DNA of 64,000 bases from the IMG/VR virus record IMGVR_UViG_3300033429_000001, positions 1 through 64,000 of that record, one strand, 5' to 3'. Below the pieces are notes generated by a model that searched no databases, was not told where the DNA came from, and saw nothing but the letters and a program-made list of their open reading frames with translations. The DNA comes from a virus. Of the stretch, positions 19,442 to 27,103 are shown one piece after another. The stretch's first letter is position 1. Every line of letters starts with the position of its first letter. The translations under genes were made by a program, and so were the position numbers.

Positions 19442-19985
19442 TTTACTCAAGGAAATAGAATCCCCTGTGGTCATGGAGACGCACGGCGGTAACGGTGTTT
19501 TGTGGCGTCGCTGTTATGATAGCGTACCCGATGGTGTTGTTTTTGAGAAGGACGCCAAAAAAGCGGATATACTAGGTAAGCAGCGTCCGTGCTGGGCAGT
19601 GTATGAGGCTGACTGTATAAGTGCAATTTCCGATGGAGTAGGAGGGCACCTGGACATCAACTTTGTGGATTTTGATCCATACGGCGAACCCTGGCCAGCG
19701 ATTGACGCATTTTTTGAGAGTGAACGCCCACGGCCTGATAGGTTGGCGGTGGTGGTGAATGACGGGTTAAGAGGAACATTAAAAATCGGGGCATGGAGTG
19801 TAAAATCTATGACCGAAGCCGTTGAAAGATACGGCAATAGCATCTACCATGACTATCTCAAAATCTGCCAAGAATTACTACAACAAAAAGCGGCCCAACG
19901 AGGCTACAAGTTAACTCGTTGGGCCGGGTACTATTGCGGCCACGCCAAAGAAATAACTCATTATGGCGCGGTGTTTGTTCTTTAG
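19389..19985 (+). CDS. Putative SAM-dependent methyltransferase-fold protein
   Basis: ETHGGNG.LW, FEKD, DFDPYGEPW. Confidence 0.55.
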   Translation: MGQRDNSTLALKISLRRNLLKEIESPVVMETHGGNGVLWRRCYDSVPDGVVFEKDAKKADILGKQRPCWAVYEADCISAISDGVGGHLDINFVDFDPYGEPWPAIDAFFESERPRPDRLAVVVNDGLRGTLKIGAWSVKSMTEAVERYGNSIYHDYLKICQELLQQKAAQRGYKLTRWAGYYCGHAKEITHYGAVFVL

Positions 19986-20833
19986 TTGTGTTGAGGGACG
20001 CGCCTGGGGTTGTGATAGCCTTCGGGCAAGTACTTCTGCAAGTCTCTTTTAACATAGTGTGTTGCATTGAGACTATTTAACAATTCAATAACCTCACCCG
20101 TGAAACGCTTCCAGTCTGTGGTTTTGGTTAACTTATGATAGTTGACCCGTCCGACTTTATAGAGACTTACAAAACCGTGAGTTTGCCTGATTATTTCCAG
20201 GGTGGTTTCGGTGTCGATGACCGGTTCAAGGGAGACCCAGGTAAAGATACCGGCGTCGTGAAATTCCTTTAGGGTATCGATTCTGTCTTGAGGTAGGGCA
20301 GCGGCTGGCTCCCACTCTTTGGATACATCTGGGTCAAGACTGGTCAGGGTGCTGGCGAAGGCATCGCGGTTTGGACGGAAAAGGTCAAGATCGCGGAGGG
20401 CACGAGAGCCACCTTTTGTCAATGTGCATACTGCAAGCCCGAAGGCTTGTAGGTTTATGATTGTGGTGCGGGTCAGGCTGTTTGTGATGGGGTTGTAGGG
20501 GTCTGTGGTAAAGCTGAGTAAGACCTGCTCAGTGATCCCGGCGGCCTCGTACTTGGCAGCATCCTTTTGAAGCTTTTGGATGAAGCCTGACCTGGGGGCG
20601 GCCGTGGAGTCGAATTCCTGGCGAGACATTCGGAGGACGGCGGGAACGTAGCAATACACGCACTTGTGACCGCATCCCCGGTAAGGGTTGCAGGCCAGCT
20701 TGGCATACTCGCCGGCCTGCCCTGCCGGGGCGTAGATGTGTGAGCAGCCCTTAATAGAGTGACCGTCGGGGTTGAGTGTAAATTTTGGTTTGATTACCTG
20801 GGTTGGTTCAGATAGTAAAGATAGCTGAGTCAT
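19982..20833 (-). CDS. Radical SAM protein (spore photoproduct lyase-like)
   Basis: NPYRGCGHKCVYCY (CxxxCxxC), TDPY, LTK, SLEP. Confidence 0.9.
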   Translation of the reverse strand: MTQLSLLSEPTQVIKPKFTLNPDGHSIKGCSHIYAPAGQAGEYAKLACNPYRGCGHKCVYCYVPAVLRMSRQEFDSTAAPRSGFIQKLQKDAAKYEAAGITEQVLLSFTTDPYNPITNSLTRTTIINLQAFGLAVCTLTKGGSRALRDLDLFRPNRDAFASTLTSLDPDVSKEWEPAAALPQDRIDTLKEFHDAGIFTWVSLEPVIDTETTLEIIRQTHGFVSLYKVGRVNYHKLTKTTDWKRFTGEVIELLNSLNATHYVKRDLQKYLPEGYHNPRRVPQHN

Positions 20834-21599: not shown

Positions 21600-21712
21600 C
21601 TCCTTAAAAAGTAATATCTAACTGTAAATATTATAACATACTTATGCCGTAAACACAAGTGGAAGTTTCGCTGAATGAAACAAAAACAAACAAAATTTGA
21701 TAATTTTAAGGT
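21600..21712 (-). promoter_or_regulatory. Repeated leftward promoter cassette (TAACCTTAAAATTA box, TTGTGT-17-TATAAT, AAGGAG); second copy 22791-22903
   Basis: ~113-bp near-identical repeat, each copy directly before a gene start. Confidence 0.85.
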
Positions 21713-22587
21713 TAAACGATGTAGGCAAGAGCAGACTTGAGGGCCAGGGCTGCGGCGGTACACTGGTCGCGCTTGAAGTTCTTTCCCAGTGCATTCCAGG
21801 CTTCGGCGGCCTGTTGCCAAAAATTGATTTGATTATTAAGTACTTCGTGAGGCTTATTACCGCTTGTTGGCGGGATAGTTGTTGATGGTAGAGGCGGGTC
21901 TGCTGGAACTTCTGTTGGTTGGTCGTTGACGCTAATTTGACCGCCAAACAACGGGGCGTCAAACAAGGTGGCCTGGGCCTGCTGCTGGAACAATTCGCCG
22001 CAGACTCTACGGAACCATGCCGGGGTAGGGCTGGTGTTGTCTCGAAGCTTGCGGATGGCTAACATTTGGAAGTTGGAGTCAAGGTCGGCTTGGGAAATGA
22101 TTTGAGCGTAGCCTAGACCAATGTCGCCGGTTCTAACTAAGTCTTGAAGGTCATCACGAAGCTTCAGAAGCTTGAGACGAAATTCAACTCTTACGGAACT
22201 GACACCGGCTTGCTTGGAACACTTTTTAGCGTCCCACCCGTAAAGGCTAATCCGGCTGGCGTAAGCGTTGGCCTCGTCGATGGGGTCGAGGTCGTCGCGG
22301 CTGACATTTTCGGTGAGCATAACGGCGCTGGCTTCTTCATCGTTGAGGCTAACGACGATACACGGAACCTCTGACCAGTTCAGGAGTTCAATGGCTCGTG
22401 TACGACGCTCGCCGGCAACTATCTGGTACATTTCCGTGCTGTCTATATGGCGCACGGTAATCGGCTGAATTAGGCCATTCTCGCTGATACTGTTAGCCAG
22501 TTCTTGCAGGGCCTTTGGGTCAAAGCGAGTGCGGTCATTGTTGCCGGGTACTATGAGGGTTGTGTCAATCATTTTGATGTTGGACAT
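21712..22587 (-). CDS. parB: ParB/RepB/Spo0J family protein
   Basis: R..FD...LQELANSI..NGLIQPITVR...YQIVAGERRTRA...EN..R.DL.PIDEA. Confidence 0.9.
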   Translation of the reverse strand: MSNIKMIDTTLIVPGNNDRTRFDPKALQELANSISENGLIQPITVRHIDSTEMYQIVAGERRTRAIELLNWSEVPCIVVSLNDEEASAVMLTENVSRDDLDPIDEANAYASRISLYGWDAKKCSKQAGVSSVRVEFRLKLLKLRDDLQDLVRTGDIGLGYAQIISQADLDSNFQMLAIRKLRDNTSPTPAWFRRVCGELFQQQAQATLFDAPLFGGQISVNDQPTEVPADPPLPSTTIPPTSGNKPHEVLNNQINFWQQAAEAWNALGKNFKRDQCTAAALALKSALAYIV

Positions 22588-22928: not shown

Positions 22929-23438
22929 ATGGCCAGTAAAGAGGCTCTAATGGAACTGAGGCGGTCTCTGATCGCTGCCCTTCTATCTGCTGACCCGAGA
23001 ATTACGCAACGGCAGATATTGACCGCATTGGAGAGAAAGGGACTATTTAACCCAGATTCGGGGAATCCCTATTCTGTGGGCACCATCAACACGGACATCA
23101 AGGTCATAAAAGTGCAATGGCGCGAGCGGGCAGGGATAGATGCAGAGGGCTGGTTGAGCGAGGTTTTGGCCAAACTTGACGAATTGGAAAAAAAGGGCTG
23201 GACTACGGGAAAGCCTGATTTGGTACTGAAGTGTATTCAGGAGCGCAATAAATTACTGGGATTGTACTCCCCCTCCAGGCAAGAAATCACCGGTGCCGGT
23301 GGCGGCCCGATAAAGACAGAGGATGCAACCCTTACCGACGAAGAGCGAATTAATAGAATTGCAGCCATATTTGACCGGGCAAGAGCTAAACGAGACAGGC
23401 AAGCTGACACACAACAAGAAAAGTTGCCAGGCGAATAA
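22929..23438 (+). CDS. terS: Putative terminase small subunit
   Basis: N-terminal HTH, R.KLLGL..P...EITGAGGGPI tail; upstream of terL. Confidence 0.7.
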   Translation: MASKEALMELRRSLIAALLSADPRITQRQILTALERKGLFNPDSGNPYSVGTINTDIKVIKVQWRERAGIDAEGWLSEVLAKLDELEKKGWTTGKPDLVLKCIQERNKLLGLYSPSRQEITGAGGGPIKTEDATLTDEERINRIAAIFDRARAKRDRQADTQQEKLPGE

Positions 23439-23452
23439 TTGCATGGTATACT
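23424..23452 (+). promoter_or_regulatory. Promoter of the TIGR-Tas cassette, TTGCCA-17-TATACT (extended -10)
   Basis: Near consensus, overlapping the terS stop. Confidence 0.7.
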
Positions 23453-23457
23453 CTCAA

Positions 23458-23538
23458 TGTTCGTGAGTGGTATCAAAATTGTAAAAAACCGTTTTGGGGA
23501 GTGCAGGCCACTCGCGAACACCCAAGGCGGTTTTTTTT
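23458..23538 (+). promoter_or_regulatory. Leader attenuator: terminator hairpin whose loop is complementary to the transcript 5' end
   Basis: AAAAAACCGTTTTGGG/CCCAAGGCGGTTTTTT stem; TGTTCGTGAGTGGT pairs with GCCACTCGCGAACA. Confidence 0.7.
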
Positions 23539-23567
23539 ATTGCGTTGTAGGCGAGGCAGGCGAAGAT

Positions 23568-24191
23568 ATGGAAACAAAAGAAGATATGGCAAAGCAGAGC
23601 AAAATGACGAAGGGAAAAATTACCATTGACGTGCGTGACTGGCAAAAAGAATTTGCCGAGATAGAGCCGGATTTAACCGGCGATGACCCGATAATTGACC
23701 TTGCCCTGACAGGATTAAAACCACAGCAAGCGGGCAGGATGATAACCATCGCCGGAGAGCGTGGTGATTTAAAAGACTTTCCGGGTTCAAAGCTTTTGCT
23801 GATGGTCGGGGGAGCTAATTTCTTTAGTAGTCACGTGGCGCGGGCCAAGCGAGAAATTACGCTGAAGAACGGCAAGACCTTTAGCGGTCGGGCCTACATC
23901 GCCCCGGCTCGTGAGGTGGCGGGAGAGGATGAGGAGGATCAGTCTGATAATGATACCCATCTACAACATGCTGCCTCATCCCTTCCTGCCTCAAATTGGC
24001 TTGATGAGAAAGTAGTCAGCACAATCGACCCGGCTACTTTTGACCGGGCCGTCAGGTATCTTTTCAACCAAGTGACGGGTAATATCTGGAAGCGTTTTTT
24101 ACACATTGCCGAACACAAGCCGGGTGAAGTGGAACGGATAGCCGGCGAGTTGAAAGATAGGATAGATGAGATGGTAGAGCGGTTGAGTTAG
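23568..24191 (+). CDS. Hypothetical protein in the TIGR-Tas cassette; contains one array unit
   Basis: ORF between leader and array; the ORF-track start 23439 falls in the promoter. Confidence 0.75.
   Translation: METKEDMAKQSKMTKGKITIDVRDWQKEFAEIEPDLTGDDPIIDLALTGLKPQQAGRMITIAGERGDLKDFPGSKLLLMVGGANFFSSHVARAKREITLKNGKTFSGRAYIAPAREVAGEDEEDQSDNDTHLQHAASSLPASNWLDEKVVSTIDPATFDRAVRYLFNQVTGNIWKRFLHIAEHKPGEVERIAGELKDRIDEMVERLS
23918..23990 (+). ncRNA. Orphan TIGR-type unit inside a CDS
   Basis: stem-TCA-gtctgataa-TGATACCCA-tctacaaca-TG-stem. Confidence 0.75.
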
Positions 24192-24700
24192 CCAGCCGGC
24201 GCGTAATACCCAAGCATCTTGTGCTACCAATCGCAACCGGTGGGGCGGCCACATGCCGCGTGATACCCAAACTTCATGTGCCGCCCCACCTTAAAAGCTT
24301 ACTGAGGGCCAAATCCTAAGTGATGCCCAGTCCAACGGTGCCCTTGACAAAATCCGAGGTTGAGCCAGGTTGAACGTGATACCCACGATAATTGTGTTCA
24401 ACCCCGGCTTTTGGAGAGAAGCCAGTAGCATAGTGATACCCATGAAACGTGTGCTTCTCTCCCAAATCAAGGCAATTGGTCTTGACCAGATTAGCGGTGA
24501 TACCCACCTAGACAGTGAAAGGACAAAAATAATGAACCAAAGTGAATGTGATACCCAGAATCAATGTGTTCAAATTGAAGGCAACAACGGAGAGGGCCAG
24601 GAATCCTGTGATACCCAGTTAATGGACGTCCCCTCCGACGATAACGGGACGGGCGTCCATAAAAGTCATGATACCCACTCCCCATGTGACACCCGTCCCG
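24180..24700 (+). repeat. TIGR-type stem-loop guide RNA array, 9 tandem units (stem-CCA-N9-TGATACCCA-N9-TG-stem)
   Basis: CCA at 24192, 24249, 24309, 24365, 24422, 24486, 24537, 24597, 24657; both spacers always 9 nt; each unit has its own inverted repeat. Confidence 0.9.
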
Positions 24701-25461
24701 ACCCAAAGCCCCGCAAGCATCCCCACCTATGGCAAGCCTATCTATGGTGGTACGAGTTGATGGAAATGCGCAAGCGTCACAACTCGCGTATTTCCTCAAT
24801 CGAAAATGGCAAGAGCAATCTTGACGCGGGATTTGAACGGGAAATGATAGCGATGCTTCAGCTTGACATCCTGGTTGACCCGAAGAATAAGACCCAGCGA
24901 GCTATGTCTGCCAAGCAGATAATGGTGAATTATGGCGAGGCTGTTGGGCCAATATGGGACTGGTGTTTGGCCCATAAGGGAATGGGGGAAAGCCTGACTG
25001 CCCAACTATTGGCCCAGATAGACGACATCAACAATTCCCCATCGGTGTCCAGTCTGTGGAGGTTTGCCGGGTTCAGTATTGACGGGGGGAAGGCAGAGAA
25101 AAATCATAAAGGGGTCAAGTCGCCCTTTAACCACAAACTCAAGGGTATCTGTTTCAATATTGCCGATCAATTCATCCGGCAGCAAACGCCGTACTATGTC
25201 GATATTTATTATGCCGAGAAACAACGCCAGCGAGAATTATATCCCGAACCAGTTTGTCGGGGCTGTGGAGAGTTGGCAGTACAGAAACGGAAAAAGGTTA
25301 GAGGCAAAATGGTGATGACCTGGGGCTGTCCCGAGAATGGCAAGCACGTTGTAAATTATACCGATGCCCACCTGCATATTAGAGGGTGGCGTAAGATGAT
25401 AAAGGAATTTCTTAAGGACTTGTGGGTAGCGTGGCGCAGGATTGAGGGTCAGATAGAATGA
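24532..25461 (+). CDS. tasA: TasA-like protein: coiled coil plus IS110 C-terminal/Nop RNA-binding domain, no nuclease domain, zinc-ribbon insertion
   Basis: PIWDW...KGMG..L.AQLLA.I.DI.....SSLWRFAG...N..LK...H.H.R..RKMIK.FL.DLW..WR; no DEDD RuvC or HNH; GAAAGGA RBS; adjacent array. Confidence 0.82.
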   Translation: MNQSECDTQNQCVQIEGNNGEGQESCDTQLMDVPSDDNGTGVHKSHDTHSPCDTRPDPKPRKHPHLWQAYLWWYELMEMRKRHNSRISSIENGKSNLDAGFEREMIAMLQLDILVDPKNKTQRAMSAKQIMVNYGEAVGPIWDWCLAHKGMGESLTAQLLAQIDDINNSPSVSSLWRFAGFSIDGGKAEKNHKGVKSPFNHKLKGICFNIADQFIRQQTPYYVDIYYAEKQRQRELYPEPVCRGCGELAVQKRKKVRGKMVMTWGCPENGKHVVNYTDAHLHIRGWRKMIKEFLKDLWVAWRRIEGQIE

Positions 25462-25485
25462 GATAAACACAGCAACGCAAACCCA

Positions 25486-25514
25486 AGAGGGCCAGAGTTA
25501 TCTGACCCTCTTTT
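25486..25514 (+). terminator. Intrinsic terminator closing the TIGR-Tas cassette
   Basis: AAGAGGGCCAGA/TCTGACCCTCTT plus T tract. Confidence 0.7.
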
Positions 25515-25517
25515 ATT

Positions 25518-25546
25518 TTGACGCCAGCCAATCAATATGATAAAGT
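25518..25546 (+). promoter_or_regulatory. Promoter for terL, TTGACG-17-TAAAGT, near-leaderless
   Basis: ATG 9 nt after -10; no SD. Confidence 0.55.
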
Positions 25547-25555
25547 ATCATTAGC

Positions 25556-27103
25556 ATGCAAATACCGACGAAGAGCGAATTGATAGAGTTGCAGCCGTAT
25601 CTGACGAAATCGCAACTGGAAGAAATAGACAAACTGGCGAATGAGATCGAGATACCGCTTTGGTATCCCAATCCTGACCACGAAGACGGCTCCCCGAATC
25701 CTCAGCGATTGGCCTATGAGAGCGAGGCTGACATCTTGGGGTATGGCGGTTCGGCGGGATCGGGCAAAACGGACCTACTCCTCGGCGTCGCTGCCACCCA
25801 GCAAACCAACTCCGTAATCTTCCGCCGCGTCTTTCCCAATCATCGAGGAAACATTGAGCGCAGCCGAGAGATATTTAACCCCACCGGTGTCCCTCATGGC
25901 AAAAACAGCTTCAATGAACAGTTTCACCGTTGGAAATTAGCAAGCGGTAAACAAGTAGAATTCGAAGCCTGCCAACACGAAAAGGACAAAAACAACCAAC
26001 GCGGACGCCCCCGAGATTTCTATGGCTTTGATGAGGCCACCGAATTCACCCGCTCTCAATTTGATTTTATCATCGGCTGGAATCGCTCGACAGACCCCAA
26101 CCAACGATGTCGAATCATTCTTACTTTTAATCCCCCCACCGACGAGGTCGGCTCCTGGGTGGTGGATTTCTTTTTACCCTGGATTTCCTACCTTTTCCCC
26201 AAAGACTTTGAGCATCCCCGCCCGGCCAGGCCGGGGGAGTTGCGATGGTATGCCACCGTCGAGGGACAAGAGACCGAATGCACAGACGGAACCCCATTTG
26301 AGCGTGATGGGCTTCTCGTCAAGCCCCTTAGCCGGACTTTCATCCCAGGCAAACTCAAAGACAATCCACATTTGATAAATACCAATTATGAGGCTATCCT
26401 TCAGTCACTGCCCGAGCCGCTACGTAGCCAGGTGCTACACGGCGATTTTGCGGCAGCCAAAGAGCGCGACCCCTGGCAGGTGATTCCCGTCGAATGGGTC
26501 AAGCTGGCTCAAAAGCGGTGGCTGGAAATGGAGAGGCCGGCGGTGCCTATTTCCGGTACGGGGGTTGATGTGGCCCGAGGAGGCCAGGACAAGACAACAA
26601 AATGCGATAGGTACGACAATTATTTTGATGAGGTCAAGGTATGGCCTGGGGTGGCCACCCCAGACGGTCCGACGGTGGCCGCGTTGGTCGAGGGCGAATT
26701 GGAGGGCGAACCTGCCTACATCAACATTGATGTAATCGGCGTTGGGTCGTCTGCCTATGACAGCTTGAAGCCAATGTATAAGCGGGTCAACCCGATCAAT
26801 GCCGGGGAGAGGTCAGACTACCGGGACCGCTCTGGCAAATACAAAATGAGGAATGTTCGGGCGGAATATTACTGGCGGATGCGGGAGGCGTTGGACCCGG
26901 ATCACGGGGAAGACCCGGCGCTGCCACCGGGTAACGAGGTGGTAGCAGATTTGTGTTCGGCTCGGTATAAGGTGACGACAGCGGGGATACAGATTGAGAG
27001 CAAGGAGGAGATTAAGGAGCGGATAGGCCGGAGTCCTGATGTTGGGGAGGCTATTTTGCTGGCGAATTATCCGGGGGAGCCGCAGGGGATATTCTTTGGA
27101 TAA
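25556..27103 (+). CDS. terL: Terminase large subunit
   Basis: YGGSAGSGKT Walker A, FDEATEF Walker B, TFNPP, GVDVARGGQD nuclease motif, RSPD.G.A. Confidence 0.95.
   Translation: MQIPTKSELIELQPYLTKSQLEEIDKLANEIEIPLWYPNPDHEDGSPNPQRLAYESEADILGYGGSAGSGKTDLLLGVAATQQTNSVIFRRVFPNHRGNIERSREIFNPTGVPHGKNSFNEQFHRWKLASGKQVEFEACQHEKDKNNQRGRPRDFYGFDEATEFTRSQFDFIIGWNRSTDPNQRCRIILTFNPPTDEVGSWVVDFFLPWISYLFPKDFEHPRPARPGELRWYATVEGQETECTDGTPFERDGLLVKPLSRTFIPGKLKDNPHLINTNYEAILQSLPEPLRSQVLHGDFAAAKERDPWQVIPVEWVKLAQKRWLEMERPAVPISGTGVDVARGGQDKTTKCDRYDNYFDEVKVWPGVATPDGPTVAALVEGELEGEPAYINIDVIGVGSSAYDSLKPMYKRVNPINAGERSDYRDRSGKYKMRNVRAEYYWRMREALDPDHGEDPALPPGNEVVADLCSARYKVTTAGIQIESKEEIKERIGRSPDVGEAILLANYPGEPQGIFFG

Follow-up and report, generated by a model that had tools for sequence, protein, structure and literature searches.

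Do ten short hairpins and the protein gene beside them, flanked in a phage genome by the large terminase gene and a gene that is likely the small terminase, form an RNA-guided system, or are they the remains of a transposase? The question is raised by a 64-kb window (64,000 nucleotides, the whole stretch of DNA analysed here) of a near-complete phage genome of 72.7 kb. A first-pass annotation, made from the letters alone, had proposed a TIGR-Tas-type locus; a TIGR array is indeed recognisable by reading the sequence without tools. Systems of this kind were described in 2025–2026, and the family, its stem-loop arrays, gene-embedded guides and TasA-mediated repression have all been published already. 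The tasA gene of the window is probably already contained in Table S1 of the discovery paper (Faure et al. 2025, PMC12045711). We consider it very likely that the locus is a complete stem-loop TIGR-TasA operon, with a proposed role as an RNA-guided binder that does not cut. It offers a compact ten-guide TasA operon in a near-complete phage genome, with several directly testable points: a conserved partner gene, guides within two coding regions and one guide that matches its own locus.

The array occupies positions 23918-24699 of the window, on the plus strand, and consists of ten units of the form stem-CCA-N9-TGATACCCA-N9-TG-stem. A search for CCA-N9-TGATACCCA-N9-TG, allowing at most one mismatch, gives ten matches in the 64-kb window, all on the plus strand between 23939 and 24688. 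The mean in shuffled sequence is 0.01, and none of 100 shuffles reaches ten. The units and their twenty 9-nt spacers are present exactly as first listed: the A/B pairs are gtctgataa/tctacaaca, gccggcgcg/agcatcttg, catgccgcg/aacttcatg, aatcctaag/gtccaacgg and ggttgaacg/cgataattg in units 1 to 5, and gtagcatag/tgaaacgtg, gattagcgg/cctagacag, aagtgaatg/gaatcaatg, ggaatcctg/gttaatgga and taaaagtca/ctccccatg in units 6 to 10. All 20 spacers differ and the boxes are kept, with departures in unit 1 (TCA for CCA), unit 2 (loop TAATACCCA), unit 4 (loop TGATGCCCA) and unit 9 (CG for the final TG). UG...CCA is found on both the stem side and the loop side of the units, which is the box C/D pair symmetry needed by a dimer. 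Together with the five units of a stem-loop relative from the related loci (L001), the set numbers 15 units, of which 14 retain the loop G-C pair and all retain the stem-base pair.

Closing stems are clear in six of the ten units and weak in the other four. The fold z-scores of units 1, 3, 5, 6 and 10 range between -3.2 and -5.5. Unit 1 (23918..23991, core 23939-23970) folds at -32.7 kcal/mol (z -3.2), unit 3 (24238..24291, core 24249-24280) has a perfect 11-bp stem, GGTGGGGCGGC / GCCGCCCCACC (z -5.45), unit 5 (24354..24407, core 24365-24396) reaches z -4.45, unit 6 (24412..24463, core 24422-24453) has a 10-bp stem, GGAGAGAAGC / GCTTCTCTCC (z -4.4), and unit 10 (24646..24699, core 24657-24688) reaches z -4.0. 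Unit 9 (24588..24637, core 24597-24628) forms eight of nine stem pairs, yet its z is just -1.0. The weak stems (z -0.7 to +0.4) are those of unit 2 (24181..24235, core 24192-24223; z -0.4), which spans the stop codon of the upstream gene, unit 4 (24303..24346, core 24309-24340; z +0.4), unit 7 (24479..24524, core 24486-24517; z -0.7) and the AT-rich unit 8 (24528..24577, core 24537-24568; z +0.1). The first-pass annotation had given each unit its own closing stem and called only the one at 24486 weak; the stems do differ from unit to unit, whereas the weakness extends to four of them. Taken together, the weak stems and the motif variants suggest that part of the ten units may be decaying.

The stems also covary. 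Across the 15 units of the window and L001, 69% of the stem cells are paired, compared to 51% in shuffles, and none of 500 shuffles is as high. When the 3' partners are slid as a control, 36-47% of the cells are paired. The covariation score is 0.51, against 0.21 in the shuffles and at most 0.25 in the slid controls. The window units are thus bordered by variable palindromic stems and not by edge repeats.

The open reading frame that ends at 25461 is a TIGR-associated protein of the TasA type. The gene tasA (24532..25461, plus strand) codes for 309 residues; its likely start is indicated by AAAGGA 9 nt upstream and by the same MNQ start in homologue P0002, and the collection's own gene call begins at 24376 (361 aa). 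The NCBIfam model TIGR_Tas_endo (NF052498) matches residues 126-356 of the 363-aa ORF with 151.8 bits, where the cut-off is 100, and the best PDB sequence match is TasR (9mty, E 3.5e-23). In a Foldseek search with the AF2 model (mean pLDDT 87.5), TasR (E 3e-11) and TasH (2e-8) come out best, followed by IS621 (5e-3). HMM and structure comparison, which had been suggested as a check of the early reading, thereby bear out the TIGR-Tas-type protein that it had named.

In the model, residues 1-55 are disordered and are followed by a coiled-coil helix (64-91), the Nop C-terminal domain and a last helix (278-304). A β-hairpin insertion carries a CxxC...C...H motif (C242, C245, C266 and H272). Where a nuclease domain would sit there is just the disordered 55-residue N-terminus, with the Nop core directly after it, and neither the Pfam search nor the AF2 model gives an HNH or RuvC domain, as the first-pass annotation had also described for 24532-25461. 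It is this absence that assigns the protein to the TasA type. The chain stops five residues past the last helix and has no C-terminal Y-x6-H tail. In the core, 55 positions hardly vary among 50 homologues. Units 8, 9 and 10 lie in the disordered 5' end of tasA, at residues 2-13, 22-33 and 42-53, respectively, and the 3' stem arm of unit 10 codes for the start of the conserved RPDPKPRK motif.

A second coding region carrying a guide lies upstream. The gene at 23568..24191 (plus strand) codes for a conserved 207-aa protein that matches no known family. Of 75 fetched loci, 9 have it on the tasA strand immediately before tasA, and its family comprises 330 clusters in a representative library. Unit 1 codes for a disordered acidic linker of this protein (residues about 117-142); the AF2 model has a mean pLDDT of 87.9, dropping below 50 at residues 125-139. 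L001 also has a unit at this place of its homologous upstream gene; its spacers differ, and its stem carries a compensatory change. Searches of the 207-aa protein against Pfam, PHROGs, the PDB by sequence, the PDB and BFVD by Foldseek, and the atlas gave no match. VIA-align reached a Z of 4.8 at most, for the C-terminal helical hairpin alone, with the N-terminal domain barely covered. TasParB-linked TIGR-TasA systems carry a ParB-like gene and tasA in a single operon (Faure et al. 2025). In the phage, a ParB gene is located 1 kb upstream of the operon, on the other strand (21712-22587), and is not a part of it; a ParB signal was found in none of 57 members of the upstream family (Pfam), and hhalign gives a probability of 0.1% against the ParB profile.

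The operon is framed by candidate signals on the plus strand. A sigma-70-like promoter candidate at 23424..23452 (TTGCCA, 17 nt, TG-TATACT) matches the consensus at 10 of 12 positions and has an extended -10 TG; it is a consensus match only. It is followed by a structured leader (23458..23538), in which a long hairpin, GTTCGTGAGTGG / CCACTCGCGAAC, precedes a GC stem and a run of eight T. The leader folds at -30.3 kcal/mol (z -3.6, equalled by none of 200 shuffles) and may be either an attenuator or the preceding gene's terminator. A terminator-like hairpin with a T run marks the operon end at 25485..25520 (-15.9 kcal/mol, z -3.8). The sole Rfam result is a weak, sub-threshold match on this hairpin, and is due to the terminator hairpin alone. 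No tRNA genes were found in the phage.

Which known system does the locus resemble most? The units match the published stem-loop unit of PlTIGR-PlTasA from a Peromyscus leucopus gut contig (Faure et al. 2025, PMC12045711; Guan et al. 2026, bioRxiv 10.64898/2026.08.11.744272), and PlTasA likewise lacks a nuclease. The PlTIGR unit, stem-CCA-N9-CGATACCCA-N9-CG-stem (Table S1, sheet 1), repeats the window design almost letter for letter. Both share stem-CCA-N9-(C/T)GATACCCA-N9-(C/T)G-stem with an own stem for each unit, a conserved 9-nt loop and 9+9-nt spacers. The two proteins also share a D-T-Q-rich N-terminus, which is unresolved in PlTasA and suggests that in PlTIGR, too, guides lie within the 5' coding region. 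Box D is UG in the window and CG in PlTIGR; in the window, the coding part of the upstream gene divides the ten units, whereas PlTIGR has 13 units in three sub-arrays; and the upstream genes differ. The TasA proteins themselves appear divergent.

According to Xu et al. 2026 (bioRxiv 10.64898/2026.09.09.750476), stem-loop systems have no C-terminal Y/H processing loop, and the tail-less proteins of the window and L001 fit this rule at the level of sequence. MbTasA, BlTasA and an inactive TasR are presented there as RNA-guided repressors; with MbTasA, a reporter is repressed, and EMSA shows binding to the target. As in the window, these systems have stem-loop arrays, no Y/H loop and guides inside the tas coding region, at disordered segments; they use a CUU box C with a processing motif, while box C of the window is CCA. 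A guide inside a neighbouring non-tas gene is present in the window and was not found in the sections of the preprint that were covered. TaTasR and SpTasH (PDB 9mty, 9w04) are the closest in sequence and fold and have the Nop-domain fold and box C/D recognition in common with the window, but they are DNA-cutting proteins with a RuvC or HNH nuclease; both domains are missing from the window TasA. IS110/IS621 bridge-RNA recombinases and archaeal Nop5 box C/D RNPs share the RNA-binding fold and the logic of a two-spacer guide; in the window, the DEDD recombinase domain and the single bridge RNA are missing, and fibrillarin or L7Ae partners were not identified. CRISPR-Cas can be set aside: the sole conserved element is 9 nt long, each unit has two spacers, and there is no cas-like ORF between 20000 and 29000.

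The published relatives suggest how the operon would work; that it is transcribed and processed, and that its complex binds and represses, we infer from them. A single transcript running from about 23450 as far as the terminator near 25520 would contain the 207-aa gene, the ten tigRNA units and tasA. In each unit the hairpin loop would present box C (CCA), spacer A, a box D/loop/box C segment (UGAUACCCA), spacer B and box D (UG), and a TasA dimer is predicted to bind the two box C/D pairs. In dual-repeat systems the Y-x6-H tail of Tas serves the self-cutting of the precursor. As the window TasA has no such tail, a host RNase cutting in the linkers probably releases the units. Each of the two 9-nt spacers would then base-pair with a different strand of an 18-bp site, in agreement with PlTasA cryo-EM, in which each spacer forms 9 bp, on opposite strands. 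Since a nuclease is absent, the complex would bind and block transcription or replication instead of cutting. The targets are most likely foreign DNA, either competing mobile elements or the host.

For the target searches we used the site 5'-[spacer A][reverse complement of spacer B]-3', the geometry that would follow from published 3' overhangs of 8 nt and from the C-5 rule. This search had been proposed by the first-pass annotation, and it returned no convincing natural target in the phage, 75 related loci, IMG/VR or metagenome contigs. With the exception of guide 5, no guide has a site with up to two mismatches in the 72.7-kb genome, in both strand geometries and two same-strand controls, and sites with three mismatches occur there at chance level. 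The 75 related loci (1.0 Mb) yielded 3 and 1 matches with two mismatches, against about 0.4 expected, located in unrelated, distant loci.

Guide 3 shows an excess of matches. In the geometry given above, its exact 18-mer occurs in 23 IMG/VR contigs, where a composition model predicts about 0.6 and background 18-mer scans of IMG/VR found 2, 0, 0 and 1. The contigs contain the site in a primase-helicase gene (15), a small ORF of a provirus family (4), high-GC sequence (2), a Dam-like gene (1) and one other context. One spacer cannot derive from five unrelated genes at once, and we treat the excess as a lead and not as a target. Five of the records, fetched whole, contain no match to any other guide with up to three mismatches. 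Metagenome contigs gave 100 matches, of which the 80 listed belong to 65 unrelated clusters whose flanks are not conserved; the background scans apply to IMG/VR only.

Guide 5 matches its own DNA, at 24386-24403, because its spacer A can also pair with box D and the 3' stem arm of the same unit. The match comprises eight Watson-Crick pairs and one rG:dT pair, and unit 5 is the only one of 271 units, from the window and 15 related loci, with a self match of at least 7/9. One may ask, then, whether the system serves the phage's own biology, as a timing switch, an autoregulator or a helper of packaging or partition, and not the fight against other DNA, with guide 5 acting on its own array ~130 bp upstream of the tasA start to limit tasA and units 6-10. 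The position between the terminase genes and the nearby ParB gene would suit such a function, and lifecycle regulation is among the possible roles in published discussions. The self match, however, may be a by-product of local duplication, as the 5' stem arm of unit 5 (GGTTGAG) resembles spacer A (GGTTGAACG). L001 has no self match, the nine other guides find no site in the phage with up to two mismatches, and ParB lies outside the operon on the opposite strand; we regard a role in the phage's own biology as unlikely. Rather doubtful, too, is a self-limiting operon of three parts, in which the 207-aa protein, encoded beside tasA in 10 loci, would be an undescribed partner of TasA and guide 5 would be autoregulatory, parking TasA upstream of tasA.

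The weak stems, the variants in units 1, 2, 4 and 9 and the lack of a target would also be expected of a relic in which TasA or most units are dead and the pattern is left by recent descent. A relic is very improbable given the intact TasA frame with a score well over the family cut-off, the nearly invariant core, twenty distinct spacers between kept boxes, covarying stems and the compensatory change by which L001 retains the unit in the upstream gene. We give practically no credence to a broken IS110-family transposase with bridge-RNA-like remnants, or to a mere D-T-Q/H peptide repeat in a disordered tail. Standard pipelines would choose the former, as the first-pass annotation foresaw: PHROG 4285, which TasA matches, and the RefSeq entry of a distant homologue in Mycobacterium phage Omega are both labelled 'transposase', and Pfam gives a weak Transposase_20 match (E 0.09, 13.6 bits, under the cut-off of 21.3). 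Translated in frame, the loop does give D-T-H or D-T-Q in units 1 and 7-10. Yet units 2-7 lie outside any conserved reading frame, with units 5 and 6 read in another frame, and the stems covary at the RNA level. Neither Pfam nor the AF2 model contains a DEDD/RuvC catalytic domain, there are ten tandem units in place of one bridge RNA, and the protein passes the curated TIGR-Tas model. The absent catalytic domain, the TIGR-Tas score and the covariation contradict both versions and leave the stem-loop TIGR-TasA operon as the preferred reading.

The clade of the window TasA includes proteins from a different type of array. Eleven dual-repeat TIGR-TasA loci of IMG/VR (L002-L012) encode TasA proteins that are 39-53% identical to that of the window (best tblastn segment), and in a tree of 18 Tas proteins they form one clade with it (support 99/100). 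The inner branches of this clade, which holds both array types, are not resolved, so that no direction of change can be read from it. Six of the loci (L002, L005, L006, L008, L009 and L012) have the same 207-aa-type gene upstream. Their arrays consist of regular 36-nt units with the edge repeat TGCGAGCCA, in contrast to the unique stems of the window. An EGLPxSEP[Y/F]...GH C-terminus, with the spacing of SpTasH Y289/H296, is found in all eleven and in L032, which has a degenerate array only, whereas the proteins of the window and L001 end right after the last helix, without this tail. TasA matches in named phages are all below 60% identity (25-34% for the best-covering ones), and the relatives found in genomes come from MAGs of many phyla.

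The locus clearly belongs to the described TIGR-Tas family, and the first-pass annotation was right to interpret it as a TIGR array with a nuclease-less Tas protein. Ten units on the + strand carry the loop motif TGATACCCA with at most one mismatch (23951-24677; seven exact and three one-mismatch copies), and an eleventh one-mismatch match at 23740 lies outside any unit. With their flanks, all ten copies have the proposed layout of box C, 9-nt spacer, loop, 9-nt spacer and box D, and the twenty spacers read earlier are found letter for letter in the sequence. Departures of one letter are TCA in unit 1, the loops TAATACCCA and TGATGCCCA in units 2 and 4, and a terminal CG in unit 9. The composite 32-nt pattern, allowing one mismatch, matches 10 times in the window against an expectation of 0.01, and none of 100 shuffles reached 10 matches. 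The final spacer base is mostly G in the window (23939-24688; 8/10 copies for spacer A) as well as in the arrays of the related IMG/VR loci L001-L012, so that box D in effect reads GUG(A) and closer to 8 nt of each spacer are free to vary.

Folded singly, units 1, 3, 5, 6 and 10 clearly beat their shuffles (z -3.2 to -5.5), units 2, 4, 7 and 8 are no different from shuffles, and unit 9 forms 8/9 stem pairs yet reaches a z of only -1.0. For covariation, the ten window units were aligned without gaps to five units of L001, a stem-loop relative, and the 13-pair closing helix was scored together with the loop G-C pair. In this 15-unit alignment, 69% of the helix cells are paired, compared to 51% in shuffles (0/500 as high) and 36-47% with slid partners. 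Pairing above both controls, with changes on both sides of 12 of the 14 pairs, indicates that the closing stems are real and unlike between units. The claim of a different stem for each unit is thereby upheld by covariation, but the single weak stem assigned to the unit at 24486 is not: four are weak (units 2, 4, 7 and 8).

Family searches were carried out with the long ORF at 24370-25461. Pfam returned Transposase_20 alone, below threshold, and PHROGs returned family 4285, labelled 'transposase' (1e-34). The NCBIfam equivalog model TIGR_Tas_endo covers residues 126-356 with 151.8 bits (cut-off 100), and a PDB sequence search retrieved TasR (9mty, E 3.5e-23) and TasH (E 1.6e-4), with no others. 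The AlphaFold2 model of TasA, built on a 50-sequence alignment, has a mean pLDDT of 87.5. Following a disordered segment (residues 1-55), it contains a long coiled-coil helix, a helical domain, a beta-hairpin insertion and a final helix, which stops at residue 304 of 309. Foldseek ranks TasR above TasH, followed by the bridge recombinases IS621 and ISCro4. No HNH or RuvC domain is present in the window's Tas protein, identifying it as TasA. The hairpin insertion (residues 242-272, window 25255-25347), placed before the last helix, bears C242, C245, C266 and H272 in a CxxC...C...H arrangement. It is probably a zinc ribbon at the position of the literature's insertion 2, and these residues would bind the metal. 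Many homologues have the CxxC...C...H insertion and others are without it.

The locus is probably already in the published catalogue. Table S1 of Faure et al. 2025 lists the L001 protein, and places its row and 17 others (at least 18 rows) under one node at 50% identity. The gene that represents this node is given as 24375_25461 (+), equal to the window's gene call. The coordinates match and the window's own TasA sequence was not found among the rows listed, so the representative is only probably the window gene. The PlTIGR units in the same table, stem-CCA-N9-CGATACCCA-N9-CG-stem, have almost the window's design. PlTasA is reported to bind processed stem-loop guides (PMC12045711), and in its cryo-EM structure each spacer forms 9 bp, the two pairing with opposite strands (bioRxiv 10.64898/2026.08.11.744272). 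For MbTasA, reporter repression and target binding in EMSA are described (Xu et al. 2026, bioRxiv 10.64898/2026.09.09.750476). What is added here is descriptive: the exact operon anatomy, the absence of the processing tail from TasA, a conserved upstream partner gene whose linker region holds a guide, the match of guide 5 to its own DNA and a negative target search.

A word-index search detected 320 proteins at E <=0.001 among 531 candidates, and IMG/VR yielded 58 loci. The close loci L002-L012 have regular dual-repeat arrays of 36-nt units, whose edge and loop repeats are TGCGAGCCA and TGAAACCCA, respectively. The L001 array is of the same stem-loop kind as the window's, with loop TGTTACCCA; that of L060 looks stem-loop and that of L059 mixed. 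The C-terminal TasA motif EGLPxSEP[Y/F]-x5-GH is found in 11/11 dual-repeat loci (L002-L012) and in L032, which has a degenerate array. Its Y-x6-H spacing is the same as in SpTasH, where Y289 and H296 are reported to cut the precursor (PMC13421893). TasA of the window and of L001 stops right after the last helix, without this tail, which agrees with the published rule that the processing loop is absent from stem-loop Tas proteins (Xu et al. 2026). Presence and absence of the tail both occur in one clade (99/100 support), whose inner branches lack resolution. Among the dual-repeat arrays, three consecutive units are identical in L008 (9955-10062), and two consecutive units of L009 (9875-9946) share spacer A and differ at 2/9 positions of spacer B. 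Such arrays look as if they had grown by tandem duplication and then acquired point changes.

Against 23 aligned homologues, the conserved part starts at RPDPKPRKHP, from residue 107 of the long ORF (nucleotide 24688) onward, which is where unit 10 has its 3' stem arm. The coding region must therefore start within the array. On sequence grounds the ATG at 24532 is the favoured tasA start, since AAAGGA lies 9 nt upstream and a 68%-identical homologue (P0002) has the same MNQ start; the collection's own gene call begins at 24376 (361 aa). If tasA starts at 24532, residues 2-56 would come from units 8, 9 and 10 and coincide exactly with the disordered N-terminus; the loops of these units translate as D-T-Q or D-T-H. 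The N-terminus of PlTasA is D-T-Q-rich (Faure et al. 2025, Table S1). Guides located within the coding sequence of tas, at places that correspond to disordered protein segments, have already been described (Xu et al. 2026).

Unit 1 is located in the upstream gene (23568..24191, +, 207 aa), directly 5' of tasA. It encodes residues 117-142, the sole disordered stretch in an otherwise confident model. In L001, whose upstream protein is 36% identical, a unit with different spacers occupies the same place; its stem reaches -38.8 kcal/mol, with a z of -6.5 relative to mononucleotide shuffles. One compensatory change separates the inner helices, GGAUGAAG/CUUCAUCC in L001 and GGAUGAGG/CCUCAUCC in the window. 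At the protein level only, D-T-Q/H is seen in the linker of at least 6 of 55 other aligned family members. A guide inside a gene neighbouring tas did not turn up in those sections of Xu et al. 2026 that the comparison covered. The family profile finds a same-strand copy directly 5' of tasA in 9/75 loci (L001, L002, L005, L006, L008, L009, L012, L059 and L060), all in the close TasA clade, and 330 clusters at E <=0.001 in a representative library. The upstream protein matched no known family or fold in searches whose structural part chiefly covered the C-terminal helical hairpin. Some tasA genes share an operon with a ParB-like gene according to Faure et al. (PMC12045711). The upstream gene has no detectable ParB likeness (hhalign probability 0.1% against a 25-sequence ParB profile). 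A ParB-family gene (ParB_N 1.5e-23, HTH_ParB 1.9e-10) is located at 21712-22587 (-), 1 kb upstream, on the opposite strand and outside the operon.

In published papers, cleavage leaves 8-nt 3' overhangs, and the cut adjoins the nucleotide that pairs with base 5 of the spacer. From this geometry, the target strand would read spacer A and then the reverse complement of spacer B, the same orientation that had been suggested first. The only site with up to 2 mismatches in the 72.7-kb genome is that of guide 5 on its own DNA (24386-24403), with 8 Watson-Crick pairs and one rG:dT. Unit 5 is alone in having a self match of at least 7/9 among 271 units of the window and 15 related loci. Guide 3 matched 23 IMG/VR contigs, four other IMG/VR scans gave 2, 0, 0 and 1 contigs, and the 80 matches listed for metagenome contigs fall into 65 unrelated clusters. 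The guide-3 matches lie in five unrelated contexts, and five of the matched records, examined whole, contain no match to any guide besides guide 3. The guide-3 matches are regarded as an unexplained excess and not as a natural target; Xu et al. 2026 warn of exactly such false-positive targets. In L086 and L089, two otherwise unrelated phage genes are identical over 23 nt that include the 18-mer which guide 3 would target, and they read this stretch in different frames.

The window belongs to a virus record 72,741 bases long. A single sequencing run was found, the record's probable source, which is a sediment metagenome, and no RNA runs are listed. The large terminase gene (25556-27103) follows the TIGR operon. 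A 169-aa ORF at 22929-23438 (+), whose L008 homologue immediately precedes the large terminase gene there, may encode the small terminase, in which case the operon would sit between both terminase genes. The operon is bracketed by a promoter-like site with a structured leader and by a terminator-like hairpin. At 23424-23540, a good sigma-70-like promoter match is flanked on one side by the stop codon of the ORF before it and on the other by a 14-bp hairpin that folds strongly; another GC stem and eight T come next. This region could represent either a small RNA or a leader of the TIGR operon that resembles an attenuator. The phage also has a gene for a radical SAM protein (Pfam 1.9e-11), at 19982-20833 (-).
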